Source: a virus
IMG/VR virus record: IMGVR_UViG_3300037087_000773
Length of the DNA stretch: 46,145 nt
Strand: one strand, 5' to 3'
Below are positions 13,061 to 40,376 of this stretch, piece by piece; within the stretch, counting starts at the first letter, position 1, and each line of letters starts with the position of its first letter. A program made the translations under genes and the position numbers. The notes beneath the pieces were generated by a model. That model had not been told where the DNA came from, ran no database searches, and was given only the letters and a program-made list of their open reading frames with translations.

Positions 13061-13501
13061 TTATTTTTGTTCTGGTGATGTTAAATTCCATGATTTGTCA
13101 CCACCATTTTCAACGCTGTCATTTTCAACAGGCTCCCACACTGTTTTACCAAATTTGAGTACCTGTTTTACTTCATTCTTTCGTTCCATTTTATCAAATC
13201 TACTATCCACTTTAGAAAGAACTCCCTTTATTTCTTCTTCAAGAGAAGAATAAAGATTATTTACTGCAGTCGATATACCATCATCAATTTTTGCATCAAT
13301 CCTTTTGATTTGATCGTCATATCTTGTAAGAATTTCACCTACATTGGATGTCAAAGAGTTATTCACAGCTTCGACCATCTCTGCATTTTCTTTTGACAAT
13401 TTCTTCGTTTTCCAAGAAGTTACCGATAACCATACTAAAAGTATGACTACACCAACCCCTAACAATGTGAATAAAACTGTCAATAAAATTGTTTGTATCA
13501 T
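13061..13501 (-). CDS. membrane-anchored coiled-coil protein (146 aa)
   Basis: N-terminal transmembrane segment ILLTVLFTLLGVGVVILLVWLSV, followed by a charged helical region. Confidence 0.45.
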   Translation of the reverse strand: MIQTILLTVLFTLLGVGVVILLVWLSVTSWKTKKLSKENAEMVEAVNNSLTSNVGEILTRYDDQIKRIDAKIDDGISTAVNNLYSSLEEEIKGVLSKVDSRFDKMERKNEVKQVLKFGKTVWEPVENDSVENGGDKSWNLTSPEQK

Positions 13502-13645: not shown

Positions 13646-16600
13646 ATGAATCAGATTGATGATATTATCAAAAGTAGTAATTCCCAAGCCGGTCAAGATG
13701 TATTTGCTTATTATATATGTGACACGAACAATGGATATTTTATTGATATTGGATCTGGAACTCCAATCGGTATGAATAACACATATTTATTAGAAAAAAA
13801 CGGATGGAATGGATTAAACTTTGATTTTTGGGATAATAGAAAATCATATGAGGAATCCAGACGAACACCTTACATTATGGAAGATGTAAATAAAATAAAT
13901 ATGTCGAATTTTTTAGAAAAAATGAATTCTCCAAAAGTCGTAGATTATTTATCAATAGACATAGATGAAAATACTGATTATTTTCTATCTAATAATTTTC
14001 CTACTGATTACGAATTCAAAGTCATCACATTTGAACATAATTTATATCTCGATGGAGATTCATTGAAAAACAAATCAAAAAATTTCTTCATAGAACACGG
14101 ATATACTTTATTATGTGAAAATGTTGCACTCAGTTTCACATCCAAATATGATGTTTTTGAAGATTGGTACATCAATGAAAAATATATTGATATTAAGAAA
14201 TTCGAATTTTTGAAATCTTGTGGTTTACACTTTACTGAAATAATAAACAAAATAAAAGAACATGAATTGAATAATATAAAAATTTGTCTTTATACCATGT
14301 GTATAAATGAAGAAGAATTCCTGCCATTTTTCTTGGATTATTACACAAATTATGTCGGGGTGGATAAAATAGTTATTTATGATGGTGGTTCAACAGATAA
14401 ATCACATAGTATAATAAATAGTTATCCGAATACGGAATTAATACTGGAGCATGATGATAAAACTGATTCCTTCAGAGATCTTAGGATATGGAATGAAGAA
14501 TGGAAAAAATGTCGTAATGATTATGATTGGATGATTGTATGTACACCAGATGAATTCTTATATCATCCAGATTTAAGGAATAAATTAATCGAATATAAAA
14601 AAAATGGAATTACCATCCCAAATGTAGAGGGATTTGATATGATATCTTTGAATCATCCTAATTATGATAAAGGAAATTATTTACCAAACCAAATAAAAAG
14701 AGGAATAAAAGATTCAACATTCTTAAACAAAAATATCATATTCAATCCAAAAGAGATTGATATTAATTATCATGTCGGTTGTCATGGTTGTAATCCCACT
14801 GGAAATATCAAATTCAGTGAAGAATATGATTTCAAATTACTTCATTATAAATGGATATCTTATGATTTTCTAATGAGAGATTCTAAAAGAAAATATGAAA
14901 GATTATCTGATAAAATGTTAGAAACAGGGGCTGGTGGACATTATAAAGTCTTTATTCAAAAAACATATGAAGAATATGTTCAAAGATATAATCAAACGAT
15001 ACAGGTTCTTGAAGAAGAAAAAGATATAAATCTTTTTTGGCATTGTTATCTCATTAATAATTGGGTGAAAATATTCAAAAATCAATTAAATAAAATTGTA
15101 GATAGTGGATTATATGAAAAACTTAATACCATTCATTTACATTATTTTGGAAAACCAGAAGAAGTTAAAATTTTATCAGAACTAATTTCAAGATATGATA
15201 AAATAAAGTCTTATGAAATAGAAGATAATTTTTATGAATATCCGACAATAAAACATATTCATAAATTTTCATCTGTAAACAATTCGTATGTTGGTTATAT
15301 TCATTTAAAAGGTGTCTGGAGTTCCATGAATAAAGAAAAAAATATTGAGGCTATAAATAGTTGGAGAAAATGTTTAGAATATTTCAACATAGAAAAATGG
15401 GATAACTGTATATCTAAGATAAATGAGGGTTATGAAGTGGTAGGGGCTTTATATAATTACAATGAAAAAGATCCCTTATTTAGTGGAAATTTTTGGTGGA
15501 CTACAACAGATTATATCAAAAAATTAAAATATCCTCAATATGATCCTTCAAAAAATCCATATCCAATGGATGATGGTACTTGGTGTAGGGTAGAATGTGA
15601 GAAATGGATAAATACAATACCGAATAAATTTTACAATTTTTATATACCAAAAGATTATGGTTTTTATCAAGTACCGATAGACGAAAATGATTATAAGGAT
15701 AAAAAGACAATAAATCATATTTATGAAAATATAGAGGGATGGTTTGATTTCGAAAAAATTTATTCTGATATGGTTAATAGATTTCCAAATGGATCTCATT
15801 TTGTTGAAATAGGTTCTTGGTTAGGAAAATCCACTTCTTATATGGGAGCTGAAATATCTAATTCGGGAAAAAAGATAAAATTCGATTCTATTGACACATG
15901 GGAGGGATCAAAAGGAAGTTGGGATGAACAAGTCCAGAATGACACAATAAATAATTTGAATATATCTTTATATCAAAAATTCTTAGAAAATGTAAGACCA
16001 GTTAAAGATTATATTAATCCAATCCAAGGATGGTCATATGATGTTGTTAATAGATATGAGGATAAATCCCTTGATTTTGTTTTTATCGATGGTGCTCATG
16101 ATTACGAATCTGTTAAAAAAGATATAAATGATTGGTATCCGAAAGTAAAAGATAATGGTGTTATAGCGGGTCATGATTATAATATTCACGATTGGCCGGG
16201 GGTCGTTCAAGCGGTAAATGAATTTTTTAATGAGGGAAATGTCTCAAGTGTCAAAAAAGATACTTGGTCTTGGATTGTAGATAAAAAAGAATTCGAAGAT
16301 TCGAAACAAAAAAATCATAAAATATCAATCATTATTCCGACATATAATCGTCCTGATATTTTAACAGAATGTATAAATTCAGTTTTAAAACAAAATTATG
16401 AAAATTTAGAAATACTTATTTGCCATGATGGTTTTTTTTCTGAATTTTATTGTTATGATTATAAGACCACAGACAAGAGAATATTCTATTACAATACAGA
16501 CAATCAATACAACAATCTGGGGGCGGCACAAAGAAATATGATGATATCAAAAGTAACTGGTGATTATATTCTTTTTTTAGATGATGATAATATTCTTTAT

Positions 16601-18493
16601 GATGGATATTTACAAAAGATGATAGAACAAATTGACAAAAATACAGGGATGGTTGTTTGTCGTATTCATTTTAATGATAAAGAATGGCTGAATTTAATAT
16701 TACCCCCTGATGATAGATTGATACCAGCCAAAATAGATCATCTTTCTATCCTCTTTAAAAGTGATATAGCAAAGAAATTTACATGGGATAATGATTGGGG
16801 TCAAGATCATCGTTTTATAAATAATTGTGAAAGATTATGTAATGAAAAAGGATTTGAAATAAAATATATTCCAAATATTCTTGCCAATCATCGTTATTTA
16901 AAAAGAGAGAATAGAATTGACGAATTATTAAAAGAAAAAAGATTAGAACAATATGATGATGATAATGGTGTAAATAGATTATTTGGATTAAAAAACATGA
17001 TAGATGAAAATCTAAACAAAGAATCTATAATATGTGAAGTAGGATCGTTTGATGGTAAATCCTCTGAATTGTTTGCACTATTAACTAAAAAGGTTTATTG
17101 TGTTGATCCTTGGGTTTTATATTCTCAGATAGATGATGAATCTATGATTAAATCCGAAGAAAAATTTGATAAATTATTGAATAAGTATAACAATATAATT
17201 AAAATAAAAAATTACAGTATAGAAGCCTCGAAAACATTTGAAAATGAATTTTTGGATTGTGTTTATATTGATGGTAATCATGATTATGAACCAGTTAAAC
17301 AAGATATCTTACATTGGATTCCAAAAATAAAAAGGGGAGGGTTCATAAGTGGACACGATTATCATTTTGAGGGAGTAAGAAAATCTCTAAATGAATTATT
17401 TCAAAATATTCCGATAAAAGTTTATTCCGACCAAAGTTGGGTTGTAAAAATAAATGATTATAGAAAGGGTGAAAAACCACATAAAGAAGTAGTCATTATG
17501 ACATCTCACCCAAACTATAAAATGTCAGAAGATATAACTAAACTGGCCATTAATTCTTTTGATAATAAAGATGTGATATTATCTGTACATTGTCCAGTAT
17601 CCATAGAATTACAAAATAAAGTAAAATATTTATTATATGATAAAAATAATCCCTTAATTCGTCATGATTATTATAATCAAAGTTGGTTTGAAACGACTGA
17701 ATATTATTCATTGATTAAACTTCATTATAATGATAATGATTTTCAACACGCTTTGGCTGTTTATATTAATTATTACAATGGTATAATGTATGCTAAATCA
17801 TTGGGTTATACGACAGCTATTTGTACCAATTTTGATATAGTTTTCAGTAAAGAAGATCTGAAAATAGTTGACGAAAAAATTAGTGAAATGTATCAATCTG
17901 GAAAAAAATCATTCTTTATGACATCAAATCCGAGTGAGGGAATACATTATAAAACAATTTTCTTTATAACAGATGTGGATTTCTTTTTGAATAATTTTAA
18001 ATATGTAACCAATGAGAAAGATTATAACAAACTAACCAGAGAAGTAGGATCTGAAACAAATTGTTTAGAGAATTTTTTCTATGAAACTTTAAAAAATTCA
18101 GATAAATTATTACTTCAACAAATAGAAGAAAAGGAATTATTTTCAAAAAGTAAGGTGAATATGTTCTCAAATATAGAATATTTCACTATTCTCCCACTGA
18201 GAGATGATAATGAACATTTTGTTATTTGGTTTAGTTCAGCAAATTCGATTGATAATAGGTCTATTGGAATCCATGTCCTAAAAGGAAGGGAAGCTATTTT
18301 TAGCCACAGTGGAAATATCAGTAAGGATTATAAATTCTATAAGGAAATAAAATTCGAGAAGGACTGTAATTATGAAGTAATATGTAATGTATATTACGAT
18401 GATATGGTAAATCAGAAAACAATTACCGTCAATAACGATGTTTTCTATAACAAATTAAAAGATTACGGAGATTTCTGGAAGAAATCAGTATAA
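13646..18493 (+). CDS. 1615-aa multidomain glycan-tailoring enzyme (FkbM-MT / GT-A / unknown / class-I MT / GT2 / class-I MT / unknown)
   Basis: Around aa 10-190, FkbM-like (AGQDVFAYYI...GYFIDIGSGTPIGMNNTYLLEKNGWNGLNFD). Around aa 205-330, GT-A domain (ICLYTMCINEEEFLPFFLDYYTNYVGVDKIVIYDGGSTD). Around aa 700-870, class-I SAM methyltransferase of Methyltransf_24 type (HFVEIGSWLGKST...DFVFIDGAHDYESVKKDINDWYPKVKDNGVIAGHDY). Around aa 890-1100, GT2 (ISIIIPTYNRPDILTECINSVLKQNYENLEIL...FLDDDN). Around aa 1130-1250, a second Methyltransf_24 domain (ICEVGSFDGKS...CVYIDGNHDYEPVKQDILHWIPKIKRGGFISGHDY). The aa 440-690 region and the C-terminal roughly 330 aa are unassigned. Confidence 0.8.
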   Translation: MNQIDDIIKSSNSQAGQDVFAYYICDTNNGYFIDIGSGTPIGMNNTYLLEKNGWNGLNFDFWDNRKSYEESRRTPYIMEDVNKINMSNFLEKMNSPKVVDYLSIDIDENTDYFLSNNFPTDYEFKVITFEHNLYLDGDSLKNKSKNFFIEHGYTLLCENVALSFTSKYDVFEDWYINEKYIDIKKFEFLKSCGLHFTEIINKIKEHELNNIKICLYTMCINEEEFLPFFLDYYTNYVGVDKIVIYDGGSTDKSHSIINSYPNTELILEHDDKTDSFRDLRIWNEEWKKCRNDYDWMIVCTPDEFLYHPDLRNKLIEYKKNGITIPNVEGFDMISLNHPNYDKGNYLPNQIKRGIKDSTFLNKNIIFNPKEIDINYHVGCHGCNPTGNIKFSEEYDFKLLHYKWISYDFLMRDSKRKYERLSDKMLETGAGGHYKVFIQKTYEEYVQRYNQTIQVLEEEKDINLFWHCYLINNWVKIFKNQLNKIVDSGLYEKLNTIHLHYFGKPEEVKILSELISRYDKIKSYEIEDNFYEYPTIKHIHKFSSVNNSYVGYIHLKGVWSSMNKEKNIEAINSWRKCLEYFNIEKWDNCISKINEGYEVVGALYNYNEKDPLFSGNFWWTTTDYIKKLKYPQYDPSKNPYPMDDGTWCRVECEKWINTIPNKFYNFYIPKDYGFYQVPIDENDYKDKKTINHIYENIEGWFDFEKIYSDMVNRFPNGSHFVEIGSWLGKSTSYMGAEISNSGKKIKFDSIDTWEGSKGSWDEQVQNDTINNLNISLYQKFLENVRPVKDYINPIQGWSYDVVNRYEDKSLDFVFIDGAHDYESVKKDINDWYPKVKDNGVIAGHDYNIHDWPGVVQAVNEFFNEGNVSSVKKDTWSWIVDKKEFEDSKQKNHKISIIIPTYNRPDILTECINSVLKQNYENLEILICHDGFFSEFYCYDYKTTDKRIFYYNTDNQYNNLGAAQRNMMISKVTGDYILFLDDDNILYDGYLQKMIEQIDKNTGMVVCRIHFNDKEWLNLILPPDDRLIPAKIDHLSILFKSDIAKKFTWDNDWGQDHRFINNCERLCNEKGFEIKYIPNILANHRYLKRENRIDELLKEKRLEQYDDDNGVNRLFGLKNMIDENLNKESIICEVGSFDGKSSELFALLTKKVYCVDPWVLYSQIDDESMIKSEEKFDKLLNKYNNIIKIKNYSIEASKTFENEFLDCVYIDGNHDYEPVKQDILHWIPKIKRGGFISGHDYHFEGVRKSLNELFQNIPIKVYSDQSWVVKINDYRKGEKPHKEVVIMTSHPNYKMSEDITKLAINSFDNKDVILSVHCPVSIELQNKVKYLLYDKNNPLIRHDYYNQSWFETTEYYSLIKLHYNDNDFQHALAVYINYYNGIMYAKSLGYTTAICTNFDIVFSKEDLKIVDEKISEMYQSGKKSFFMTSNPSEGIHYKTIFFITDVDFFLNNFKYVTNEKDYNKLTREVGSETNCLENFFYETLKNSDKLLLQQIEEKELFSKSKVNMFSNIEYFTILPLRDDNEHFVIWFSSANSIDNRSIGIHVLKGREAIFSHSGNISKDYKFYKEIKFEKDCNYEVICNVYYDDMVNQKTITVNNDVFYNKLKDYGDFWKKSV

Positions 18494-22769: not shown

Positions 22770-23309
22770 TTATCCCTTTCTAAGTTGATTAAATTCTAAT
22801 GTCAATGGAGTTTTTCTACCAAATATTTTTACTGATACAGTAATTCTTCTTTTTTCCTCATTAATTTCATCAACAGTAGCATTGAAATTAGCGAAAGGAC
22901 CATCTGAAATAGTAACATTTTCCCCAATAACAAAAGGTATTTTAACTGAATCTGGACTTTCATTCATTTCATCAAGTTTCCCTAATATTCTCGCCACTTC
23001 AACATCTCTTAAAGGTTCTGGTGTACCACCCTTTGGTCCAAGAAAATGAAGAGCCCCAGTAATACTTTTTAAAATTCCTGTGAATTCACCACACATTTCG
23101 GCCTCTAAGAGGATATATCCCGGAAAATAGTTAACTTCACGAGTAACTTTCTTTCCATTTTTCACATAAAATTCCTTATGAGTAGGTATCACAATTTGAG
23201 ATACCTTATCTTTAAGCCCGTATTTTTCTATTTCACTTTCAAATTGTTTCTTAACTCTTTTTTCCCATCCACTATTTGAACGGATTACATACCATCTCAT
23301 ATTTGACAT
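22770..23309 (-). CDS. nusG: transcription termination/antitermination factor NusG (bacterial type, 179 aa)
   Basis: NGN domain: RWYVIRSNSGWEKRVKKQFESEIEKYGLKDKVSQIVIPTHKEF...VNYFPGYILLEA. The E. coli equivalent is RWYVVQAFSGFEGRV...VMVPTEEV...RKFFPGYVLV. KOW motif: FVIGENVTISDGPFANFNATVDEINEEKRRITVSVKIFGRKTPLTLEFNQL (E. coli [51 protein letters not shown]). It is not in the canonical secE-nusG-rplK context. Confidence 0.85.
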   Translation of the reverse strand: MSNMRWYVIRSNSGWEKRVKKQFESEIEKYGLKDKVSQIVIPTHKEFYVKNGKKVTREVNYFPGYILLEAEMCGEFTGILKSITGALHFLGPKGGTPEPLRDVEVARILGKLDEMNESPDSVKIPFVIGENVTISDGPFANFNATVDEINEEKRRITVSVKIFGRKTPLTLEFNQLRKG

Positions 23310-25031: not shown

Positions 25032-26399
25032 ATGATTAAATTAATTGTATTTGATTTAGATGGGGTTTTAGTATCTACAAAAGAACTTCATTACTTTTCC
25101 CTGAATAGGTCTTTATGTGATATTGATTCTAAATATGAAATTGGTTTAAATGAACACTATGAAATGTATGATGGACTACCGACAATGAGGAAACTAAAAA
25201 TGTTAACTCAATATAAAGATTTACCATCGGAATTATATGACCAGATAAATAGGAATAAACAAAAATACACATTTGATCTTATCAGAGAAACCATCAAAAA
25301 AGATGAAAGACTTATAGAGTTATTGAAAAAGCTAAAGAGTGAAAATTTCAAAATTTATGTCGCATCAAATTCAATTCGTGAAACAACTAAACTTTTATTA
25401 TATTACACTGGTTTATTAGAATATGTTGACTTCTATATATCAAATGAAGATGTAAAAAATCCCAAACCAAATTCAGAAATGTACTTACATTGTATGATTG
25501 ATGCTGGGGTTAATCCAGATGAAACATTAATTGTCGAAGATTCTCCAAGAGGTATCGAATCGGCCAGAAACGCTAAAAGTCATATATTGATAGTCCAGAA
25601 TCCAGAAGATTTGACATATGAAAAAATACACCATTCCATGATACATGATAATAAACCAGTAAAATTAAAACTATCTAACTTTAATATTTTAATTCCAATG
25701 GCTGGGGCTGGAACAAGATTTCAAAAAGCCGGGTTCACTTTTCCTAAACCATTAATTGAAGTCAATGGAAAACCAATGATACAAGTTGTAATTGACAATT
25801 TGGGATTTGAAGCCAATTATATTTATGTGGTTCGTAAAGAACATTATGAAAAATTTAATCTCAAGAATTTCTTGAACTTAATAACTCCAAATTGTAAAAT
25901 AATTCAAGTGGATGAATTAACTGAAGGAGCGGCTTGTACAACCTTGTTAGCTAAAGAATATATAAATAACGACAATCCATTAATTATAGCCAATTCCGAT
26001 CAGTTTTTAGAATGGAATCCGATGGATTTTTATTATAAAATGATTGAAACTAAATCAGATGGTGGAATTGTAACATTTCGTTCAACTCACCCAAAATGGT
26101 CATTTGCGAAAATAAATGAATTCGGAAATGTTGTTGAAGTGGCCGAAAAAAACCCGATTAGTGATATTGCCACCGTTGGTGTTTATTATTATAAAAAAGG
26201 TTCTGAGTATGTCAAATATGCCGAACAAATGATAAGTAAAAACATAAGAGTAAACAATGAATTCTATGTCTGCCCAATATACAATGAATATATTGGTGAT
26301 GGTAAAAAAATTAGAACACATGATATAGATAAAATGTGGGGTATAGGTACACCCGAAGATCTCGAATACTTCATAAACAATTATAATCAAAAAAAATAA
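25032..26399 (+). CDS. bifunctional HAD-superfamily hydrolase/phosphomutase-like (N-terminal) plus sugar-phosphate nucleotidyltransferase (C-terminal)
   Basis: N-terminus IKLIVFDLDGVLVST (DxDG motif I)...LIVEDSPRGIESARNA (HAD-IA). C-terminus ILIPMAGAGTRFQKAGFTFPKPLIEVNGKPMIQ (NTP_transferase G-x-G-T-R signature)...IANSDQF. Confidence 0.75.
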   Translation: MIKLIVFDLDGVLVSTKELHYFSLNRSLCDIDSKYEIGLNEHYEMYDGLPTMRKLKMLTQYKDLPSELYDQINRNKQKYTFDLIRETIKKDERLIELLKKLKSENFKIYVASNSIRETTKLLLYYTGLLEYVDFYISNEDVKNPKPNSEMYLHCMIDAGVNPDETLIVEDSPRGIESARNAKSHILIVQNPEDLTYEKIHHSMIHDNKPVKLKLSNFNILIPMAGAGTRFQKAGFTFPKPLIEVNGKPMIQVVIDNLGFEANYIYVVRKEHYEKFNLKNFLNLITPNCKIIQVDELTEGAACTTLLAKEYINNDNPLIIANSDQFLEWNPMDFYYKMIETKSDGGIVTFRSTHPKWSFAKINEFGNVVEVAEKNPISDIATVGVYYYKKGSEYVKYAEQMISKNIRVNNEFYVCPIYNEYIGDGKKIRTHDIDKMWGIGTPEDLEYFINNYNQKK

Positions 26400-26406
26400 A
26401 AAACAC

Positions 26407-26646
26407 ATGAAAACATTAAAAAATGAATTGAATTTAAAAGGAATTAAAAATTGGAGTTTAATATTTGGAGGATCTGATCCAGATATAAAACCAACAATCT
26501 TATTAAGATTTAATGATGATAGAATTGAATCTTTACTTCTTAATAAAGAAGAAATAAAAAAAATAAAAAATTCAAAAGAAGGAGAATTCCAAAAGGAAGT
26601 AGAAAAAATCATATTGAATAAATTGCAAAAATCCGAATTAGAATAA
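26407..26646 (+). CDS. hypothetical small protein (79 aa)
   Basis: ORF within the operon, starting 7 nt after the upstream stop. K/E-rich. Confidence 0.35.
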   Translation: MKTLKNELNLKGIKNWSLIFGGSDPDIKPTILLRFNDDRIESLLLNKEEIKKIKNSKEGEFQKEVEKIILNKLQKSELE

Positions 26647-27314
26647 TGAAAGTAGCTCTCCTTTTAACTGGTTATTTAAGAAAATATAAAGAATGTTTCA
26701 ATAGTTTATATCAAAATTTATTATCCAAATATGATATAGATATTTATTGTTCGACTTGGAATAAACAAGAAAATGGAATCATAATTGACGAAAAATATTT
26801 CGATATTTATAATCCAAAAAAAATCATCATAATTGATGTTGATGAATATAATAAAATCAAACCAATATTCAAAAAATTACAAAGAGAAAACGATGTTTTT
26901 GATATTGATCAAAGAGCTAAATGGCATGGTGAATATTGGGTTAATAGATTAATGGATCAATGGTATATAGTGAAGAAATCTTTTGAATCCATAGAGAATT
27001 CAGAACAATATGATAAATTTTTCAGACTTCGTTATGATGTTTTATTGAATAATTTTATTTTATTAGATAACGACCATCTAACAATTCCACGAGATGAATC
27101 TTTTGTGTGGGATTATAGTGATCACATGGCTTATGGAAATTATGATGCTATGTATAAATATTGTCATTTTTATGACCATATTTTCAAACTTTATGAAAAA
27201 TATAATATAGATGTATCACACGCGGTTAATATGCTGAAATTCTACATGGGTGAATATGAACCAAAAGTTGAAACAACAGTAGATGTTAATCTCGTGTATA
27301 AAATAAACAAATAA
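26646..27314 (+). CDS. hypothetical protein (222 aa), weakly paralogous to 30102..30896
   Basis: VALLLTGYLR...IYCSTWNKQENG versus the 30102 gene's VIFRGSVLYAG...VIVSTWKGQEEH. The similarity is low. Confidence 0.45.
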   Translation: MKVALLLTGYLRKYKECFNSLYQNLLSKYDIDIYCSTWNKQENGIIIDEKYFDIYNPKKIIIIDVDEYNKIKPIFKKLQRENDVFDIDQRAKWHGEYWVNRLMDQWYIVKKSFESIENSEQYDKFFRLRYDVLLNNFILLDNDHLTIPRDESFVWDYSDHMAYGNYDAMYKYCHFYDHIFKLYEKYNIDVSHAVNMLKFYMGEYEPKVETTVDVNLVYKINK

Positions 27315-27316
27315 CG

Positions 27317-28444
27317 ATGAACATATTAATACCAATGGCCGGTTTAAGTACCAGATTTCTTAACGAGGGTATAAAAACACCTAAACCATTAATTAAAGTA
27401 AATGGAAAGACACTCATTGAACATTCTGTTAGTTCATTAAATATTCATGGACATTATATATTTATTACTCGTAAATATGAAAATCCACAAGATAATATCG
27501 ATTTATCAGAAGAACTAAAAAGATTAGTTCCTAATTGTTTGGAAATTTGTTTAGACAAACCAACCAGAGGAGCCACCGAAACCTGTTTAATGGCCGAACA
27601 ATGGATTAATACTGATGAAGAACTCATAATAACAAATTGTGATCAAATAACAAATTGGAAATCTGGTGATTTTTTAAAAAATATCGGTCAATATTCAGAT
27701 TTTCCAGATGATTATCCTTTTCCAGATGGTGGTTGTGTAGTAACATATACTTCTGATAATCCAAAAAACAGTTTTGCTATTGTTGAAAATGGGCAAGTAA
27801 CACAAATTGTTGAAAAAAAGGTCGTATCTAATATAGCCCTTATCGGTGTTCATTATTGGAAAAAAGGAAAATATTTTGTCGAATCGGCAAAACAACTCTT
27901 AGAAAGTTTTGAAAAAACTGGAGTACCCGAATGTTATATTTCCGAAACTTATAATTTTCTTATTAAAAAGGGACTCAGAATTACAAATTATCATGTCAAA
28001 GAAAATCAATATATTTCCCTTGGTACACCCTATGATTTAATGATTTATGAATCAAAAATAAAGGAATATTTCACTGATAAACCAAAAACCATTTTCATTG
28101 ATTTAGATGGAACAATAATTCATCATCTTCATAGATTTAGTGATGTCGTGAAAGAAGAACCAACTTTGTTAGAGGGGGTTATTGAAAAAATAAATGAATG
28201 GGATTCACATGGTCATAGAATCATTTTTGTAACCGCAAGAAAAGAATCAGCAAGAGAGATGACTGAAAATCAATTGAGAAAACTCGGTTTATGTTGGGAT
28301 CAATTAATAATGGGTGTGTCTAATGGAATCAGAGTGATGATTAATGATAAATTAGACGAAGATAATCCAGATCGTACAATATCAATTAATTTGAAAACCA
28401 ATAGTGGATTTAAAAATATAAAGTGGGGTGATTACGGATTATGA
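27317..28444 (+). CDS. bifunctional sugar-phosphate nucleotidyltransferase (N-terminal) plus HAD-like phosphatase (C-terminal)
   Basis: N-terminus MNILIPMAGLSTRFLNEGIKTPKPLIKVNGKTLIEH (NTP_transferase). C-terminus TIFIDLDGTIIHH...IIFVTARKESAREMTENQLRKLG...MINDKLDED (HAD motifs I-IV). The domain order is the reverse of the 25032 gene. Confidence 0.75.
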   Translation: MNILIPMAGLSTRFLNEGIKTPKPLIKVNGKTLIEHSVSSLNIHGHYIFITRKYENPQDNIDLSEELKRLVPNCLEICLDKPTRGATETCLMAEQWINTDEELIITNCDQITNWKSGDFLKNIGQYSDFPDDYPFPDGGCVVTYTSDNPKNSFAIVENGQVTQIVEKKVVSNIALIGVHYWKKGKYFVESAKQLLESFEKTGVPECYISETYNFLIKKGLRITNYHVKENQYISLGTPYDLMIYESKIKEYFTDKPKTIFIDLDGTIIHHLHRFSDVVKEEPTLLEGVIEKINEWDSHGHRIIFVTARKESAREMTENQLRKLGLCWDQLIMGVSNGIRVMINDKLDEDNPDRTISINLKTNSGFKNIKWGDYGL

Positions 28445-29403
28445 AATTATACAGAATCGAAGATATGAAAGGTGGTTGGTTCGTTGGTAATTTTGAACCA
28501 ACCATTTTTAAAACAAAAGAATGTGAAGTATCTTATAAAGTCCACAAGAAAGGTGAAATTTGGGATATTCATTATCATGATGTTTGTACAGAGATAAATC
28601 TACTCATAAGAGGTGAGATGATAATGCAAAATAAAACTTTAAAGCCGGGAGATATATTTGTTCTCGAACCATTTGAAATAGCAGATCCGACATTCTTAGA
28701 AGATTGTGAAATTATATGTGTTAAAGTTCCATCAATAAATGACAAAATATCTGTGATTAAAAAGGAAATCACACAGGTAAAAGAATCCACGCAAAGAACA
28801 GAAATGGACTTCAGAGAATTGATAAAACCAAAGGGATGCACTTTTATTCAAATTGGTTCTAATGATGGAATTAAAAATGAAAATTGCGGTTTTAGAGAAG
28901 AAGTTTTAGAACATGAACATAATGTTATAATGATAGAACCAATTCCTTCTTTTTTTAATCAATTAAAATTAAATTATAAAAATAGTAAATCTCATATACA
29001 ATTTGAAAATTGTGCAATAACTGAAAGTAATCAAGAAAAAAGCATTTATCTCAATGATGAAGAAAGTTCTTTTTGTGTGATTAAAGATAGAGACCCGAAT
29101 AATTTTTTAAAAGTAAAATGTAAAACAATTCACGATATTATAAAAGAATATAACATAACACATATAGATGGTTTATTTATTGATGCCGAAGGTTATGAAT
29201 ATTTGATATTAAAAAATTTATTTGAAAAAAAGAACATCCCGAATATAAATTTCATAAGATACGAATTTGTACTTAGTGAAAATATTAATGGATTAGATGA
29301 ACTATTAGTAAACAATGGATTTAGAATATTCAAGGATTCAACTGAAGGTGGAGATAAAATCGCTGTTAATAATAAATTAATACAAAAATTAAAAATAATA
29401 TAA
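28441..29403 (+). CDS. cupin-domain (N-terminal) plus FkbM-family methyltransferase (C-terminal) fusion
   Basis: Cupin: GGWFVGNFEP...HKKGEIWDIHYHDVCTEINLLIRGEMIM...KPGDIFVLEP. FkbM: CTFIQIGSNDGIKNE...IMIEPIPSFF...IDGLFIDAEGYEYLILKNL. It overlaps the upstream gene by ATGA. Confidence 0.65.
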   Translation: MKLYRIEDMKGGWFVGNFEPTIFKTKECEVSYKVHKKGEIWDIHYHDVCTEINLLIRGEMIMQNKTLKPGDIFVLEPFEIADPTFLEDCEIICVKVPSINDKISVIKKEITQVKESTQRTEMDFRELIKPKGCTFIQIGSNDGIKNENCGFREEVLEHEHNVIMIEPIPSFFNQLKLNYKNSKSHIQFENCAITESNQEKSIYLNDEESSFCVIKDRDPNNFLKVKCKTIHDIIKEYNITHIDGLFIDAEGYEYLILKNLFEKKNIPNINFIRYEFVLSENINGLDELLVNNGFRIFKDSTEGGDKIAVNNKLIQKLKII

Positions 29404-29409
29404 AAAAAT

Positions 29410-30102
29410 ATGTTTGGACAATTATCAACCCATGTGGGGAAAAGAGTTAATTTCGTTATAAATAAGATGGACTTATCCAATATAAAGGAAATATTAGACA
29501 TCGGATCATGGCATTTAAATCAAAGTCATGAATTTCATGATATTTTTCCTGATGCGAATGTAAATGCATTTGAACCAGTACCAGATTCATATCAACTTTG
29601 TTTAAATAACAATCGTTGTCCAGATAAAATATCTGTTCACAATTTGGCATTAACCGATTTTAATGGTGAAACTAATTTTTATCCAGTAGATCCTGTTAAA
29701 AGTTCAGATCCAAATGTGGGAGCTTCATCACTACTGAAATTCATGGATGGTTTAAATGGTAGTTTCTTTAACCAGAACTGGATTCAAAATGAGATTATTG
29801 TTAAATGTTCAACTTTGGATAATTGGTGTCAAACTTATGGAAAAAAAATAGATATAATTTGGATAGATGTTCAAGGAGCCGAACTTAAAGTTTTCAAAGG
29901 GGCAGACAATACATTGAATGATGTGAAAATAATATTTACTGAAGTTGGACTTAAACCTTATTATGTAGGACATAGTTTAAAAAATGAAATTGATGAATAT
30001 CTAATAAGTAAGGGATTTGTAGAATTAACCGAATCTTTTGAATTGAACGGGTTTGATTACGAAGCAAATACTATATATTGTAAAAAGGAATTTTTATTGT
30101 AA
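29410..30102 (+). CDS. FkbM-family methyltransferase (230 aa)
   Basis: ILDIGSWHLNQSHEF...VNAFEPVPDSY...IDIIWIDVQGAELKVFKGA. Confidence 0.7.
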   Translation: MFGQLSTHVGKRVNFVINKMDLSNIKEILDIGSWHLNQSHEFHDIFPDANVNAFEPVPDSYQLCLNNNRCPDKISVHNLALTDFNGETNFYPVDPVKSSDPNVGASSLLKFMDGLNGSFFNQNWIQNEIIVKCSTLDNWCQTYGKKIDIIWIDVQGAELKVFKGADNTLNDVKIIFTEVGLKPYYVGHSLKNEIDEYLISKGFVELTESFELNGFDYEANTIYCKKEFLL

Positions 30103-30896
30103 TGAAGAAATCTGTCATTTTTAGGGGTAGTGTTTTATATGCCGGTGCTGCAAGTCGAGATATTCCAAAAAATTATCTGAAAGAATCTGTAATTAAATTA
30201 AGAGAATGGTTTGATGGGGAAGTCATTGTTTCAACTTGGAAAGGTCAGGAAGAACATTTAAAAGGAATTGACGGGATAGATAAAGTCGTACTTACTGATG
30301 ATCCCGGTCCGGGACCAGTTCAACACATAAAAAGACAAACATTATCTTATATAAATGGAATAAAGGAATCAACTGGAGATTTATTAATGGTTACACGAAC
30401 TGATATTTCTCATGAAGTAGATCCCTTCCCATATTTATTTGAATTAAAACAAAATGATGGTGCTTTTAGAGTATTTGATGAAAGAATAATAACTGGAAAT
30501 ATGATGACCATCTATCCAGATGGCCCAGAATATCCAAGTCATTTTAGAATTTGTGATTGGTTTCAAATTGGAAAAAGAGAAGATATTTTCAAATGGGGTG
30601 ATATTTTTGGATTAATAAACAATGATATCATTATTGGTAATCCCTGTACGGAACAAATTTGGTCTTTATCTGTATTGAAAAAATACTATGATGATTCAAT
30701 AGACTATCACAACATCGAACCAATAAAAAAATACGCTTGGGATTATTTACTTAATAATTTCAGAATCTTAGACATGAAATCTACCTTGAAAGCTCTAAAT
30801 CATAATTGGAATTTTCAACCTGAATACCTCCCATGTTATATAACAGAAAAAATGTATAATGATGTGTACATTTCAAAATATAAGGAACTAAAATGA
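30102..30896 (+). CDS. hypothetical protein (264 aa)
   Basis: Intact ORF with a 1-nt overlap (TAATG) with the upstream gene. It is weakly similar to 26646..27314. Confidence 0.45.
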   Translation: MKKSVIFRGSVLYAGAASRDIPKNYLKESVIKLREWFDGEVIVSTWKGQEEHLKGIDGIDKVVLTDDPGPGPVQHIKRQTLSYINGIKESTGDLLMVTRTDISHEVDPFPYLFELKQNDGAFRVFDERIITGNMMTIYPDGPEYPSHFRICDWFQIGKREDIFKWGDIFGLINNDIIIGNPCTEQIWSLSVLKKYYDDSIDYHNIEPIKKYAWDYLLNNFRILDMKSTLKALNHNWNFQPEYLPCYITEKMYNDVYISKYKELK

Positions 30897-31822
30897 AAGA
30901 TATACTATTTTTTAACTTCGATTGGGTGCCGAACTCGACCTATATTTTTAAATCATTTGAAAATTGTGGGTATTCATGTGATTGGGTAAATGAACAGTCA
31001 GTGTATGGATTTGTTCCAACAACAGAATATAAAATGATGATTGTTTATTTACATGAAAGGAATTATGCGGTTAATCCTATTTTAGTTCATCCTCTTTTAA
31101 AAAATACATTCATGGTTCAACATGATGATACTGATTTTGAAAATGTACAACAATACTATGTTCGTAAACCAGATATGATAATGCAAAGGGAACTCACCCC
31201 AGATACAGTAAATCCTTATGATTGTCCAGTTTATCCACATCATTTTCCAATTTATACGATTTACAAAGAGGGAATAATTAAAGACATTGACATATCTTTT
31301 ATAGGAACGCCCACAAATGGTAGAAGATTAAGTTTTATTGAACATATTATTAGATTATCAAAGAATGAATTGAAACATTTGAAATGGTATATACTTTATG
31401 AACAAAATAGACAAAGAGATAATTATGTAAATATTGTAAATAGAACCAAAATAGGGTTGAATTATCCGGGGAACTCATATGATACATGGAGAAATTGGGA
31501 ACAAGCAAGTGCGAAAGTTGCGACCATTCAACCGAAATTAAAAGTATTATCCTGTTCTGAGGGTCATATGCCTTATAATGATTATTTGGAAATAAAACTT
31601 GATCATTCTGATCTGGAAGAAAAGATTAATTATTTACTGGAAAATGAAAGATATAAAGAATTAGCTGAGAAATCATTTAATTCATATAACAATTTTCACA
31701 CCCCAGAAAAATGCTTCGAAAAATATTATGAAATGATAATGCGACACGCCCCCGAATCATTGGAAAGAAAACCGATTATTCCATTATCAGCTGAACCATT
31801 TTATAGAAATGTACATAAATAA
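30893..31822 (+). CDS. hypothetical protein (309 aa), possibly a glycan-processing enzyme
   Basis: ATGA overlap with the upstream gene. No confident motif. Confidence 0.45.
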   Translation: MKDILFFNFDWVPNSTYIFKSFENCGYSCDWVNEQSVYGFVPTTEYKMMIVYLHERNYAVNPILVHPLLKNTFMVQHDDTDFENVQQYYVRKPDMIMQRELTPDTVNPYDCPVYPHHFPIYTIYKEGIIKDIDISFIGTPTNGRRLSFIEHIIRLSKNELKHLKWYILYEQNRQRDNYVNIVNRTKIGLNYPGNSYDTWRNWEQASAKVATIQPKLKVLSCSEGHMPYNDYLEIKLDHSDLEEKINYLLENERYKELAEKSFNSYNNFHTPEKCFEKYYEMIMRHAPESLERKPIIPLSAEPFYRNVHK

Positions 31823-36620: not shown

Positions 36621-37322
36621 TTATTTTAAATATTCTACCGATGGTGGTATATTTTTTGTCCTATAAATGTTTTTATTATTTTCCAGAATCATATATCCAT
36701 AATTATTATCATCTGGATTGGTTCTTTTTTCAACGACAGAACGATTCACGGAATTTATTTCCATTACTCTTACACCTAATAATGTTTTTCTTTTCAACCC
36801 AAATTGCATACATCTTTCTGTCATATCACTATCACACCAATAATATTGAAATTGTGAATCATACATTCCAATTTTTCTAAAAACATCTTTTTTATATATC
36901 CCGAAATTCATACAACCATCAAATAATATCTGTGAATTTTTAAACACACTGTTTTTATCCACCGCGAATTGTTCCAGTGAACCTCTTGTCCAAGGAAACA
37001 CATAATAATCAGAATCATCTATTTCTTGTATGATATCATCCCAATCATTACACAAAAGAACATCATCATTCCATTGAGCTATTAATTCATAAGAGGCATT
37101 CTTTATACCCAAATTCATATAATGCGGATAACTGCTTCTACCACCTACCTCAATTAATTTGATTCTGGGGTGATTTAAGAGCTTCAGGTACTCGATTGTA
37201 CCATCAGTGGAGCCACCGTCCACTAAAATCAGCTCGACCTTTTCTGAGCTCCCTACGGTGTTATTTATGATATGACTTAATAACACCAATCTATTTAATG
37301 TTCCAGTAACTACACTTATCAT
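36621..37322 (-). CDS. glycosyltransferase family 2 (GT-A fold)
   Basis: MISVVTGTLNRLVLLSHIIN...VELILVDGGSTDGTIEYL...QWNDDVLL. It overlaps the upstream gene by ATGA. Confidence 0.65.
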   Translation of the reverse strand: MISVVTGTLNRLVLLSHIINNTVGSSEKVELILVDGGSTDGTIEYLKLLNHPRIKLIEVGGRSSYPHYMNLGIKNASYELIAQWNDDVLLCNDWDDIIQEIDDSDYYVFPWTRGSLEQFAVDKNSVFKNSQILFDGCMNFGIYKKDVFRKIGMYDSQFQYYWCDSDMTERCMQFGLKRKTLLGVRVMEINSVNRSVVEKRTNPDDNNYGYMILENNKNIYRTKNIPPSVEYLK

Positions 37323-37972
37323 AATATACTTTTTATTTTTCCTTTATCAATTTCTTTCTCAACCATCCTATCTCTTTGACTCATAGATTTAATCATATTA
37401 TCATTTTTCTCAGGAACTTGTTTTATTTCGTGAAGATCTCTATGAAGAATCGTAATGGGAACTCTCTCCCATATTCCAAGTTCATTGGCTATCATTAACA
37501 AATATCCATCATAGGATGGACATCCCGTTATTCTTCCTACTGTTTCATAATATTTTCTTGATATATAAGGAAAATAATAATCACCAATATCACCAACTCT
37601 ACCCTCACACGGTTGATGTCTTAATATCCAAGGTTTTTGAGGATCATAATTTTCTAAATATTTATCCCAATTTTTGGTTTTCATTATTGTATCATCGTTT
37701 AATGGTTGAAGCCAATCACCAGTTGCTAATTTGGCCATATCATTTATAAAATTATGAATTTCACCATAACCCAGACCCCTTTCTGAAATAATAATTTTCA
37801 AATTTTGCCAATAAGGTAAATCGTTTAATTTTGAAATTATTTCATCACCAAAATCCAATTTTATTAAAACTTCGATGTCATTAGAACCAGTAGAATTTTC
37901 GAATATAGATTCTATACAAGTTACTAATAAATTATATCCATTTATACTTGGAATTAAAATACTTACTTTCAT
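37319..37972 (-). CDS. GT-A-fold glycosyltransferase-like protein (217 aa)
   Basis: VSILIPSINGYNLLVTCIESIFENS...DIEVLIKLD...WLQPLNDD has the GT2-like N-terminal beta-alpha-beta arrangement and a DxD-like element. Confidence 0.5.
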   Translation of the reverse strand: MKVSILIPSINGYNLLVTCIESIFENSTGSNDIEVLIKLDFGDEIISKLNDLPYWQNLKIIISERGLGYGEIHNFINDMAKLATGDWLQPLNDDTIMKTKNWDKYLENYDPQKPWILRHQPCEGRVGDIGDYYFPYISRKYYETVGRITGCPSYDGYLLMIANELGIWERVPITILHRDLHEIKQVPEKNDNMIKSMSQRDRMVEKEIDKGKIKSIL

Positions 37973-37976
37973 ATAT

Positions 37977-40376
37977 TTATTTTCTTTTTATAAAACTTCC
38001 TCTATAAGAAAATGGTCTCCCATATACTTCGAAATGTTCATTGAGAAATGATATATTATCTCCACTTGTAACTGAACTATCAAAGACCATATTTCCATTA
38101 AATGAAATTACGAATGGAACATTATTTTTCATATATTCTTCACATATTTCTTTCGGTGATTTTGTTGCTGGTTGTTCAACTGGTAATATATCTATTTTCT
38201 TCTTTGGTATATCAGGTAATTGAACTGTCTCTTTAAATCTGGAATTTAATATTGTATAATTCATATCCTTCGTTGTAATATCGGATCTGGTATCTAATAA
38301 TTTCACAAAAAATGGTAAAAACACATAAGCATAAATTTTTGGAAACAATGATTCAATATAAACATCGATTGGTTTTTCTTCTTTTTTACAAGCATCAATA
38401 ATTTTTTGAAACAATCCGTTTTTATTATTCAATATCATAGCAAAGCATCCAGTTGATCTCCAGACTCTATAAATCATAAATCTTACCTGAACAATCGGTG
38501 TTAATAAGGGTGGTATGTCAGAACCCAGATACATTATTTCCCAATCTTCAGGAACAGTATTCATATAATATTCGAATCTACTCTCGAAATCATCACAAAA
38601 AATAACATCATCCTCGAATATTGCTATTTTATTATATTCTTTTTCTATGGCATCTTGTAAAATACTTATATGTGACCTAAGACATCCGATTTCACATTTT
38701 CTCTGGTCATTACCTTCTACCTTTAATTTTTGACCATCAATCCCATTTATAATTTGATATGAACCCAATTTAATTCTACTAAATTGATCAACTATATGAT
38801 TCAGTTTATCTTTTCTTTTAGGAAGATTTATACAATACACATTATCTACAAATCTATCCAAAGCATTATTTTTGATCCTAAGTCTTGGTTTAAATTTTTG
38901 ATATTCAGGACTTTTATAATCTAAGAAATTCACAATGTTTTTGAAGTATTTATTAACCAATTCATACGAAAAAGGTTTTTTATTTTCACTTATATCGGAA
39001 ACAGTATTTATTGTCTTGACGAAAAATGGAGAGAAAATATATATGTTAAAATCTCCCAACATTTTACAATAATATTCGTCAATGGGTTCACTTTCCGATT
39101 CGGTCAGTTCAATAATTTTTTGAAATAATCCACTTTTATTATTTAATATCATGGCAAAAGCCCCATAAACTCCGTTCACTTTATTTATAAAAGGTTTCAT
39201 TTCAAGACCCTGATTAAAATGTGCACCACCAAGATACATTATATCCCAATCACTGGGTACGGCCGCGGCGTAGTATTCAAATCTTTTTTCAAAATCATCA
39301 CAAAATATAATATCATCTTCAAATATAGCTATTCTATCATATCCGTTTTTTAAAGACTCTTTTATAACACCAACATGACTTCTTAAACAAGCTACTTGTG
39401 ATGATCTTACATCTTCTCCCATCTTTTTTCCATCAATGGCATCAAATCTTTTAAATGTTATATTGAATTTATCAAATTCTTTCGTAATATGTTCTAATCT
39501 GTCTTTCCTTCTTTCTAAATTTATAACCCAAGAACAATCAACAAATTTATTTAAAATTGATTTTCCATTCCCATTATTTGGTTTTGAAACGACTTTCGGT
39601 AAAGAAGAATTTGGAACAAATTTATATGGTTCTTTTAGTCTGTTTTTTTCTATTTCTTGATAATCATAATTCTTTTCAGATAAATGATAATGATAAACCT
39701 TAATATCTTTTGATGGATTTAATACCTCATATCCATTTTTTTCGAATTCGTGAGCGAGAACATTATCACAACTTGGAGTCCCCATTTTAAAATCACAATT
39801 TAAATCATTTATTTCACCTAAAAAAGCCCAAGCACTCTGACTGAATTCAACATCAAAATGTTCCGATTTAAATGGGACTAAACTCACTATATTCCAAGTT
39901 GAAAGACAATATACTGTACCAAATTTAATGTTATTCAAAATCAATTCAATATTATCACCATCAAAATAACAATCAGAATTCAATAATATGTTCAAATCGC
40001 TATTTTTTGTATTAAAATTAATAATATTAAACATATCCCTGAAAGTTGGTTGTAAATTGATCATATTGATTTTTACAATTTTTTTATCCAACTTTTCAGA
40101 ATATTCATCAGAACACACTAAAAATATTTTGTCTATCTTCTTATTTGAAATCAATTTATTCAAACAATATTGTATTTCCTTATTTCTTTTTTCTGTTTTA
40201 GATTCGAAATAATTAAAATACACATTCACTTTTGATTTTTCATGAGTATGTTTTTCTGGTAATATGATTCTATTTTCTTCTTTTAAATAATATCCATCCC
40301 CATGACTATCATTAAAAAATATTGAACCATTATCAAATAGATAATAAGATGTATCTTTATTGGTTGATTTATTCAT
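37977..40376 (-). CDS. multidomain glycosyltransferase with two tandem GT25 (LgtB/Lic2A-type) domains (799 aa)
   Basis: Repeat 1: CSWVINLERRKDRLEHITKEF...FKRFDAIDG...ACLRSHVGVIKESLKNGYDRIAIFEDDIIFCDDFEKRF...DWDIMYLGG. Repeat 2: VYCINLPKRKDKLNHIVDQF...INGIDG...GCLRSHISILQDAIEKEYNKIAIFEDDVIFCDDFESRF...DWEIMYLG. Both align to Neisseria LgtB (ISL...ERR.HI...F.FFDA...ACFMSH..LW...IAVFEDDV). The N-terminal roughly 270 aa are unassigned. Confidence 0.75.
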   Translation of the reverse strand: MNKSTNKDTSYYLFDNGSIFFNDSHGDGYYLKEENRIILPEKHTHEKSKVNVYFNYFESKTEKRNKEIQYCLNKLISNKKIDKIFLVCSDEYSEKLDKKIVKINMINLQPTFRDMFNIINFNTKNSDLNILLNSDCYFDGDNIELILNNIKFGTVYCLSTWNIVSLVPFKSEHFDVEFSQSAWAFLGEINDLNCDFKMGTPSCDNVLAHEFEKNGYEVLNPSKDIKVYHYHLSEKNYDYQEIEKNRLKEPYKFVPNSSLPKVVSKPNNGNGKSILNKFVDCSWVINLERRKDRLEHITKEFDKFNITFKRFDAIDGKKMGEDVRSSQVACLRSHVGVIKESLKNGYDRIAIFEDDIIFCDDFEKRFEYYAAAVPSDWDIMYLGGAHFNQGLEMKPFINKVNGVYGAFAMILNNKSGLFQKIIELTESESEPIDEYYCKMLGDFNIYIFSPFFVKTINTVSDISENKKPFSYELVNKYFKNIVNFLDYKSPEYQKFKPRLRIKNNALDRFVDNVYCINLPKRKDKLNHIVDQFSRIKLGSYQIINGIDGQKLKVEGNDQRKCEIGCLRSHISILQDAIEKEYNKIAIFEDDVIFCDDFESRFEYYMNTVPEDWEIMYLGSDIPPLLTPIVQVRFMIYRVWRSTGCFAMILNNKNGLFQKIIDACKKEEKPIDVYIESLFPKIYAYVFLPFFVKLLDTRSDITTKDMNYTILNSRFKETVQLPDIPKKKIDILPVEQPATKSPKEICEEYMKNNVPFVISFNGNMVFDSSVTSGDNISFLNEHFEVYGRPFSYRGSFIKRK

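Follow-up and report, generated by a model that had tools for sequence, protein, structure and literature searches.

The window analysed here is a 46,145-nucleotide stretch of viral DNA (IMG/VR record IMGVR_UViG_3300037087_000773; 27–34% GC, with open reading frames (ORFs) dense on both strands). At 13646–18493 on the plus strand the ORF listing and its translation show an uninterrupted, ATG-initiated ORF of 1615 residues, in which four glycosyltransferase (GT) modules of GT-A type are interleaved with three S-adenosylmethionine (SAM)-dependent methyltransferase (MT) modules in the order MT-GT-GT-MT-GT-MT-GT (Table 1). The protein is probably a polyfunctional enzyme of a huge phage, soluble and cytoplasmic, that synthesises a methylated oligo- or polysaccharide.

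A single polypeptide of seven modules

The original prediction, made from the DNA letters, had described a single polypeptide stringing together methyltransferase and glycosyltransferase modules, and the ORF, its translation and the domain matches bear this out. An open frame of 1615 codons has a chance probability of about 1e-61 (at 28% GC, where stops make up ~8% of random triplets), and GC1>GC2>GC3 holds for the codon positions nearly throughout, the sole exception being the last 15-codon bin. Since no transmembrane (TM)-like segment is present (highest Kyte-Doolittle 19-mer score 0.89), the protein is predicted to be soluble. Promoter and terminator scans around the gene gave no excess over shuffled sequence. 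The divergently transcribed upstream neighbour (13061–13501, minus strand) encodes 146 residues with an N-terminal hydrophobic segment and weak coiled-coil/phasin-like matches, and might conceivably be a membrane-anchored partner.

Pfam places one Glyco_tranf_2_4, one GT2 and two Methyltransf_24 domains at the boundaries proposed earlier. Module 2 matches Glyco_tranf_2_4 (PF13704) at residues 221–311 (47.8–51.2 bits against a cut-off of 27.5 bits, E 2e-13), with a weak PF01697 (GT92) match besides, and its Asp246 and Asp302-Glu303 are conserved in 32 copies. Module 5 matches Glycos_transf_2 (PF00535, GT2) at residues 894–1016 (96.8–104 bits, cut-off 23.3 bits, E 2e-27) and PDB 5hea (E 8.5e-14); Asp928 and the DXD-type Asp979-Asp980-Asp981 are conserved in 33 copies, and the module, which has no TM region, is of the non-processive type. 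Module 4 matches Methyltransf_24 (PF13578) at residues 720–845 (81.3 bits, E 1e-22; curated cut-off 26.3 bits) and also TylF (31.2 bits, cut-off 23, E 2e-7). It contains a class I SAM-binding glycine loop together with conserved acidic and histidine residues, Glu721, Gly723, Gly727, Asp750, Asp810, Asp815, His818 and His843-Asp844 being conserved in at least 93% of 40 copies. In module 6 the Methyltransf_24 match covers residues ~1131–1239 (56.3 bits, E 7e-15), and modules 6 and 4 align motif for motif (EVGSFDGKS, VDPW, IDGNHDY, GHDY). The possibility that all domains are paralogues of one another was rejected from module alignments and hhalign, except for these two Methyltransf_24 copies.

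Module 1 is divergent. Residues 1–200 have no direct Pfam match even at E ≤ 10, failing the PF05050 cut-off of 22.7 bits, and neither this segment nor residues 440–700 and 1290–1615 have an NCBIfam or PDB sequence match. The 521 homologues of module 1 are mostly stand-alone proteins of ~200 residues, and PF05050 (FkbM, Methyltransf_21) was matched by 19 of the 36 family members sampled and aligned, with a best E of 3e-7. Comparison of the family profile with genuine FkbM domains, which came from nearby genes of the window and from homologues, gave an hhalign probability of 96.8% (E 3e-10, 119 columns) and paired FIDIGSG of module 1 with the glycine loop VEVGAG, and IDYLSIDIDE with IDFLSVDTEG, which carries the IDxLxxDxEG motif. 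The FkbM-like N-terminus of the original prediction can thus be kept as a remote homology, although not as a direct Pfam assignment.

A full-length search recovered 30 metagenomic multi-module homologues of 900–2300 residues, onto which the seven modules of the window map in differing order and copy number; some carry additional hexapeptide acyltransferase, Methyltransf_11, GT92 or canonical FkbM domains. The original prediction had every methyltransferase preceded by a glycosyltransferase; this is true neither of the order found here nor of the relatives, which permute it freely. Catalytic-type residues are kept across 32–40 copies of each module, and the conservation of SAM-binding and DXD-type residues answers the concern, raised with the original prediction, that the methyltransferase-like segments might lack the former. 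For the junctions we write N1 for module 1, GTA for module 2, DUF8361 or U1 for module 3, MT1 for module 4, GT2 for module 5, MT2 for module 6 and U2 for module 7. The best homologue differs module by module (N1, P0026, 61% identity; GTA, P0026, 75%; DUF8361, P0023, 70%; MT1, P0006, 74%; GT2, P0001, 70%; MT2, P0015, 65%; U2, P0002, 80%), which, on the sequences compared, indicates recombination within the family at the level of modules.

Because a seven-domain protein is unusual and the window probably derives from a metagenome, we considered whether the long ORF might be an artefact of assembly or frameshift correction joining adjacent genes, a risk also named in the original prediction. No evidence was found to support this reading, and it is hardly credible: all six junctions recur in independently assembled homologues (ENA, JGI and Logan data), N1-GTA in P0026, GTA-DUF8361 (GTA-U1) in at least seven proteins, DUF8361-MT and MT-GT2 in P0004, P0007 and P0010, GT2-MT in P0013, and MT-U2 in P0002, P0004 and P0011, which effectively refutes it. 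The codon-position GC pattern is uniform along the ORF, and a 1756-residue homologue lies in one frame in the phage genome LR756501, one of a set of complete genomes curated by hand (PMC7162821). Judged by these comparisons, the 1615-residue ORF is not a fusion of adjacent genes.

Modules 3 and 7 and the chlorovirus protein A064R

Residues 440–700 and 1290–1615, left unassigned in the original prediction, indeed have no Pfam or PDB sequence match (for residues 440–700, in a Pfam set without the PF27674 model). Annotation of both from sequence, by phmmer and hmmsearch against Pfam, NCBIfam and PDB, including family profiles, gave nothing significant, and hhalign to the other modules was weak, with a weak profile-level similarity to GT2. 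For structure prediction, copies of modules 3 and 7 were extracted from full-length homologues and aligned; for module 3 they took the place of a word-indexed search with just the DUF8361 segment, which had returned only two fragments. Only the predicted structures resolved the two modules, assigning a GT-A fold to each, so that the earlier suggestion of new glycan-tailoring folds was not upheld.

Module 3 (residues 450–695) aligns at 40–70% identity to the stretch of homologues annotated as PF27674, the precomputed matches to which fall between the GT-A and GT2 modules; through this annotation module 3 is assigned to Pfam DUF8361. Its model (predicted local distance difference test score (pLDDT) 85.7, predicted template modelling score (pTM) 0.86) has the GT-A fold, i.e. 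the Rossmann-like α/β/α nucleotide-diphospho-sugar transferase fold. A Foldseek search of predicted viral structures (BFVD) with this model gave matches at E ~1e-16 and 22–25% identity, comprising small uncultured tailed-phage proteins, glycosyltransferases of Klosneuvirus and Harvfovirus, and two chlorovirus-style accessions, one of which, M1IF74 (638 residues), matches at E 2e-16. A064R of chlorovirus PBCV-1 is likewise a protein of 638 residues, whose D1 is a β-L-rhamnosyltransferase of GT-A type, whose D2 (residues 213–438) is an inverting, cation-independent α-L-rhamnosyltransferase, lacking annotated homologues and proposed as a new GT family, and whose D3 is a 2-O-methyltransferase (PMC9614988).

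A search of IMG/VR for a true A064R orthologue found none; it found a 538-residue viral protein (locus L071, 3377–4990) that combines an A064R-D1-like N-terminal domain, whose sole PDB match is 2p6w_A (A064R-D1; E 0.003), with a DUF8361-like domain 32% identical to module 3 of the window. The fusion in L090 (699–2336) probably likewise joins DUF8361 to an A064R-D1-like GT, judging by the resemblance of its N-terminus to that of L071. From the sequence and structural comparisons together, module 3 is likely to be homologous to A064R D2, and the analogy with A064R, called conceptual in the original prediction, appears to be closer than that. DUF8361-like domains are encoded at 207 or more IMG/VR loci, on phage contigs as well as on those of giant-virus metagenome-assembled genomes, mostly as stand-alone proteins of 210–430 residues, with fusions to a Methyltransf_24-like domain (L078, 3386–4693) and to another GT (L077, 2966–4615). 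Homologues also occur in Bacteroidota, Saccharibacteria and others; in Flavobacterium myungsuense a stand-alone homologue lies between GT4 and GT2 genes of a polysaccharide cluster and adjoins sugar dehydratase, aminotransferase and epimerase genes.

A set of 1.84 billion representative proteins contains 288 homologues of module 7, stand-alone proteins of 320–340 residues among them, and none of these homologues matches a Pfam family or a PDB sequence. Module 7 is almost always the last module and is the most conserved among the homologues, and in two IMG/VR loci it forms a separate gene of 343 residues. Structure prediction gives its first part (7a, residues 1281–1500) a GT-A-type fold, and the whole appears to represent a further, new and uncatalogued family combining a predicted GT-A domain with a β-sandwich.

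A glycan island in a huge phage

The window is largely an island of glycan biosynthesis genes, with at least 12 GT and nine MT domains plus sugar-nucleotide enzymes in 46 kb (Table 1). Its genes include those for two GT1-like proteins and a DeoC-type aldolase. No RmlABCD/UGD-type L-rhamnose genes were seen in the island; a GDP-6-deoxyhexose route, represented by the GDP-mannose 4,6-dehydratase (GMD), is present. The ORFs at 25032–26399 and 27317–28444 (plus strand) each join a HAD phosphatase to a sugar-phosphate nucleotidyltransferase, the domain order of one being the reverse of the other, which suggests a dedicated route from sugar phosphate to nucleoside diphosphate (NDP)-sugar, possibly for a heptose or another unusual sugar.

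Table 1. The 1615-residue protein, its modules and other genes of the island
Feature	Coordinates	Strand	Basis or remark
Whole ORF, 1615 aa	13646..18493	+	soluble seven-module predicted glycan synthase
Module 1, aa 1-195, divergent FkbM-like SAM methyltransferase	13646..14230	+	profile-profile homology
Module 2, aa 205-440, GT-A glycosyltransferase (Glyco_tranf_2_4, GT92-like)	14258..14965	+	Pfam
Module 3, aa 451-695, DUF8361 (PF27674), predicted GT-A fold without DXD, likely A064R-D2-like	14996..15730	+	
Module 4, aa 701-880, Methyltransf_24/TylF-like O-methyltransferase	15746..16285	+	Pfam
Module 5, aa 890-1100, GT2-family GT-A glycosyltransferase	16313..16945	+	Pfam, PDB
Module 6, aa 1111-1275, second Methyltransf_24 O-methyltransferase	16976..17470	+	Pfam
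Module 7a, aa 1281-1500, undescribed GT-A-like domain (predicted nucleotide-diphospho-sugar transferase fold)	17486..18145	+	
Module 7b, aa 1510-1615, β-sandwich tail of module 7	18173..18490	+	
GDP-mannose 4,6-dehydratase (6-deoxyhexose donor source)	4699..5724	-	Pfam E 3e-134
NDP-sugar C-methyltransferase, TylCIII-type	7439-8698	+	Methyltransf_14 E 3e-44
638-aa protein with two FkbM stretches	8716-10632	+	Methyltransf_21 E 6e-35
NusG/KOW paralogue	22770..23309	-	Pfam NusG E 7e-18
Co-directional run: HAD+nucleotidyltransferase fusions, two FkbM methyltransferases, WavE-like, GT1-like	25032..31822	+	Pfam
Two small GT2 genes, 799-aa protein with two GT25 stretches, GT10-like fucosyltransferase	36621..41214	-	Pfam

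A tblastn search of phage genomes found a ~52% identical homologue of the 1615-residue protein in LR756501/LR756503 ('uncultured phage', 735,411 bp), where it is a single ORF of 1756 residues within a syntenic glycan island; genes of Mycobacterium and Synechococcus phages were matched through MT and GT modules. At least six neighbouring genes in the LR756501 locus are 56–78% identical to those of the window, among them the counterparts of GMD (74.5%), of the ORFs at 4187–4618 (78%), 6267–7394 (59%, in two copies flanking the LR756501 gene) and 10816–11664 (64%), and of the NusG-like gene (56%). The 735-kb genome is that of the largest phage of Al-Shayeb et al. 2020, in the Mahaphage clade, and Bacteroidetes hosts are predicted for phages above 634 kb (PMC7162821). 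From the shared genes and synteny, the window is assigned to a huge phage related to LR756501, of a clade predicted to infect Bacteroidota. Megablast of positions 1–25000 against 50,697 phage records, performed in case the window was identical to a deposited phage, gave no match, and the window appears by sequence to be a new genome, a relative of the LR756501 lineage. No structural or terminase gene was found within the 46 kb, and no tRNAs.

An origin from a giant virus (Mimiviridae), raised by the 28% GC content and the A064R analogy and implied by the original prediction, was rejected: the strongest matches are huge phage genomes, and the mimivirus early-promoter octamer AAAATTGA is not enriched in the window (15 observed, 21 expected). 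An archaeal or cellular origin, raised by the NusG match, a weak GINS/Sld5 match and a vault protein, was rejected because module 7 has no relative in 185,579 GTDB species genomes and LR756501 also has both the vault-like and the NusG-like gene. The vault-like protein (1–2424, minus strand) is a partial protein of 807 residues running off the end of the window and resembling major vault protein (MVP_shoulder, E 6e-26; Vault_3, E 2e-11; weak Band_7). A protein of LR756501 matches 98% of its length at 68.8% identity, and one of the 462-kb LR756500 is 49.6% identical; a vault-shell homologue is therefore, by sequence, conserved in huge phages.

Copies of the NusG/KOW paralogue at 52–56% identity lie near homologous genes in L001 (8023–8565), L004 (~16211–16744) and L006, the LR756501 locus (~21334–21867). 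RfaH and UpxY are NusG paralogues acting at bacterial polysaccharide operons, and by analogy the phage paralogue may be an anti-terminator for long glycan operons. Four ORFs (6267–7394, minus; 10816–11664, plus; 4187–4618, minus; 2804–3313, minus) are conserved at 57–78% beside megaenzyme genes in LR756501 and other loci. None has a Pfam, PHROG or PDB match; the L001 counterpart of 10816–11664 carries a weak GDP_Man_Dehyd (SDR) annotation, and from their conservation the four are likely undescribed components of the glycan pathway. PHROGs and PDB searches likewise gave no function for the ORF at 32545–34653 and other conserved unannotated ORFs of the island. A TnpB/OrfB_IS605-type gene (19963–21207, plus strand; HTH_OrfB_IS605, OrfB_IS605, Cas12f1-like TNB), 1.5 kb downstream of the 1615-residue gene, may be a recent insertion since it has no counterpart at that position in LR756501. 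Between the island halves lie an ORF with a DUF559/REase-like endonuclease fold (23744–24448, minus strand) and an ORF with a weak nucleoside 2-deoxyribosyltransferase-like match (24469–24927, minus strand).

Proposed function, acceptor and relation to known systems

From the domain identities, folds, motifs, phage origin, synteny and shuffling described above we infer activity, donors, product and acceptor as follows. Neighbouring genes (GMD, the sugar C-methyltransferase and the HAD-nucleotidyltransferase fusions) would supply nucleotide sugars to the 1615-residue enzyme, which would add up to four sugars successively onto one acceptor in the cytoplasm, probably including 6-deoxyhexoses from the GDP-mannose route. 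Its methyltransferase modules would O-methylate up to three positions, the mode of action being akin to that of A064R or of the tandem GT-A polymerases PmHS2 and K4CP. A methylated oligosaccharide made by an assembly line, as originally suggested, is plausible from the module content; since relatives permute the modules, the reactions need not follow the order of the domains. By recombining modules (their order, copy number, and methyl versus acyl tailoring) the lineage would diversify its product, probably a methylated glycan exposed on a surface.

As acceptor we tentatively favour phage-encoded (virion) proteins over a host lipid-linked surface polysaccharide, because the phage islands seem, from their ORFs, to lack membrane export, polymerase and priming proteins. 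A hydropathy scan detected zero polytopic membrane ORFs in the window and six related phage loci (L001–L006; ~173 kb in total), whereas the same scan readily detected 17 in nine 12-kb bacterial DUF8361 loci (L007–L015; ~104 kb). Glycosylation of virions in chloroviruses and mycobacteriophages offers precedents by analogy. Several observations weigh against a synthase of four active glycosyltransferases acting on virion proteins. The GT25, WavE and GT10 families and the NusG paralogue of the island are typical of bacterial lipopolysaccharide (LPS) and capsule loci and therefore favour a host-surface target, and export genes may lie elsewhere because the visible 46 kb are probably part of a larger genome (>400 kb, judging by relatives). 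Module 2 reads Thr-Pro-Asp302-Glu303, not a canonical D-x-D-E/DXD motif. Module 3 has no DXD, the position after its fourth strand being occupied by an invariant His553-Leu-Lys555-Gly (YFHLKGV), and module 7 has Asn-Phe-Asp1397 at the DXD position, with E-x-D in remote members. The GT-A fold matches of modules 3 and 7 also include sugar-nucleotidyltransferases, so that one of the two could be a nucleotidyltransferase or non-catalytic. As to A064R, M1IF74 was taken as its orthologue from length and accession style only, and the match of L071 to 2p6w is weak.

With the same chemistry, the acceptor may instead be a host undecaprenyl-linked or LPS/capsule glycan, the phage rewriting the Bacteroidota surface, e.g. 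to block superinfection, while priming and export would be left to the host's machinery, much as O-antigens made by the ABC-transporter-dependent route combine soluble multi-domain polymerases with terminating methyltransferases (WbdA/WbdD). We consider this a serious, though somewhat less probable, rival: the GT25, WavE-like and GT10-like families are typical of decoration of LPS and lipooligosaccharide, the NusG paralogue travels with the island, as RfaH and UpxY occur by analogy at polysaccharide operons, and bacterial DUF8361 homologues lie in surface-polysaccharide clusters. Jumbo-phage glycan clusters have been interpreted in this way (PMC7824862), and proteins directed at the cell surface have been reported from huge phages (PMC7162821). 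However, neither the window nor the six related phage loci contain a candidate phosphoglycosyltransferase, flippase, polymerase, ligase or ABC permease, in line with the zero count of polytopic ORFs, and a pathway of >40 kb far exceeds the size of known seroconversion modules.

It is unlikely that some modules, especially DUF8361 or module 7, are catalytically dead, serving as a scaffold or as a domain that binds carbohydrate or acceptor, or as a sugar-phosphate nucleotidyltransferase, so that fewer than four sugars would be added. The lack of DXD in DUF8361, the Asn-Phe-Asp of module 7 and the weak profile-level similarity of U1 and U2 to GT2 would fit such a reading, but polar residues of active-site type are strictly conserved in both modules across remote homologues (His, Asp, His-x-Lys and Arg in DUF8361; Asn, Asp and Glu in module 7, the only residues invariant across 55 remote homologues, the Asp being that of the DXD position), and proteins consisting of either module by itself are likewise encoded in glycan loci. 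The likely homologue of module 3, A064R D2, is an active, cation-independent glycosyltransferase (PMC9614988), and since metal-independent GT-A enzymes exist, A064R D2 among them, the absence of DXD does not exclude activity. That the enzyme glycosylates and methylates phage DNA, producing hypermodified bases against restriction, is very improbable. Some phages are known to hypermodify DNA by means of glycosyltransferases (cited in PMC12619734), and the ORF at 24469–24927 has the weak deoxyribosyltransferase-like match mentioned above; however, a complex glycan rather than a modified base is what one would expect from the families to which the modules belong (TylF/Methyltransf_24 and FkbM sugar O-methyltransferases, GT2, GT92-like), from the pathway to 6-deoxyhexose and C-methyl sugars, and from the number of further GTs in the island. 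Glycan synthesis on virion proteins can also be put in a stronger form, which we regard as doubtful: huge phages of the LR756501 lineage would have an autonomous, giant-virus-like glycosylation system, whose recombining megaenzymes of up to ~2300 residues, composed of interchangeable GT and tailoring modules, would attach complex methylated glycans to virion proteins directly, while these are still in the cytoplasm of the host. Shuffling would then be a source of diversity in antigenicity or adsorption, and DUF8361 (metal-independent, A064R-D2-like) and the GT-A/β-sandwich module would be uncatalogued GT families.

Like A064R, the protein of the window is a virus-encoded, soluble, single polypeptide combining GT and SAM-methyltransferase modules for one glycan, their sequential action being presumed here, and its DXD-less DUF8361 module matches the cation independence of D2. 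The proposed homology to A064R concerns D2. A064R has three modules (GT-GT-MT) and belongs to an algal virus, whereas the window protein has seven (four GT and three MT) and belongs to a bacteriophage, its other GTs being GT2, Glyco_tranf_2_4 and the undescribed GT-A-like module. A second PBCV-1 protein, A111/114R (860 residues, three glycosyltransferase domains; PMC7826918), is comparable by description as a multi-GT single polypeptide that builds the core of the viral glycan, but lacks methyltransferase modules. Pasteurella heparosan synthase PmHS2 (PDB 8viw) and E. coli K4 chondroitin polymerase K4CP (PDB 2z86), which rank high among the neighbours of modules 3, 5 and 7 by structure or sequence (sequence identity ~7–11%), are single soluble or peripheral proteins whose tandem GT-A domains add alternating sugars; unlike the window protein they have two domains, no methyltransferases and an established polymerising activity.

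In E. coli O9a, the ABC-transporter-dependent O-antigen is made by the multi-domain mannosyltransferase WbdA together with the kinase/methyltransferase terminator WbdD. There, too, cytoplasmic multi-domain GTs are combined with SAM-dependent methylation of the glycan, but the GTs are of GT4 (GT-B) families, the methyltransferase is a separate protein, and export depends on Wzm/Wzt, such export not being seen in the phage loci scanned. Virion glycosylation operons of mycobacteriophages (Freeman et al. 2023, cited in PMC12619734) and polysaccharide clusters of jumbo cyanophages (PMC7824862) likewise comprise phage-encoded GT (and MT) genes for glycans on virions or host surfaces. They differ in consisting of separate small genes, with ~32% identity over single modules and no shuffled seven-module megaenzyme.

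Polyfunctional GT/MT enzymes and phage glycan clusters are thus already known. What appears new is that a single chain holds four GT and three MT modules, that such a protein occurs in the lineage to which the largest known phage belongs, and that modules are shuffled combinatorially within the family; the identification of DUF8361 as an A064R-D2-type glycosyltransferase is probable and likewise appears new. A literature search limited to open-access texts found no paper describing these megaenzyme proteins. Glycan synthesis that viruses encode themselves, independently of the host, is understood mainly from giant eukaryotic viruses (chloroviruses and mimiviruses), and on a small scale from mycobacteriophages. 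The locus described here points to glycan islands of at least 40 kb in the largest bacteriophages, centred on a modular, recombining GT/MT megaenzyme. If this is true, it would link phage and giant-virus glycobiology, give DUF8361 a function, define a further GT-A family, and offer natural 'plug-and-play' module combinations for the glycoengineering of methylated 6-deoxyhexose glycans.

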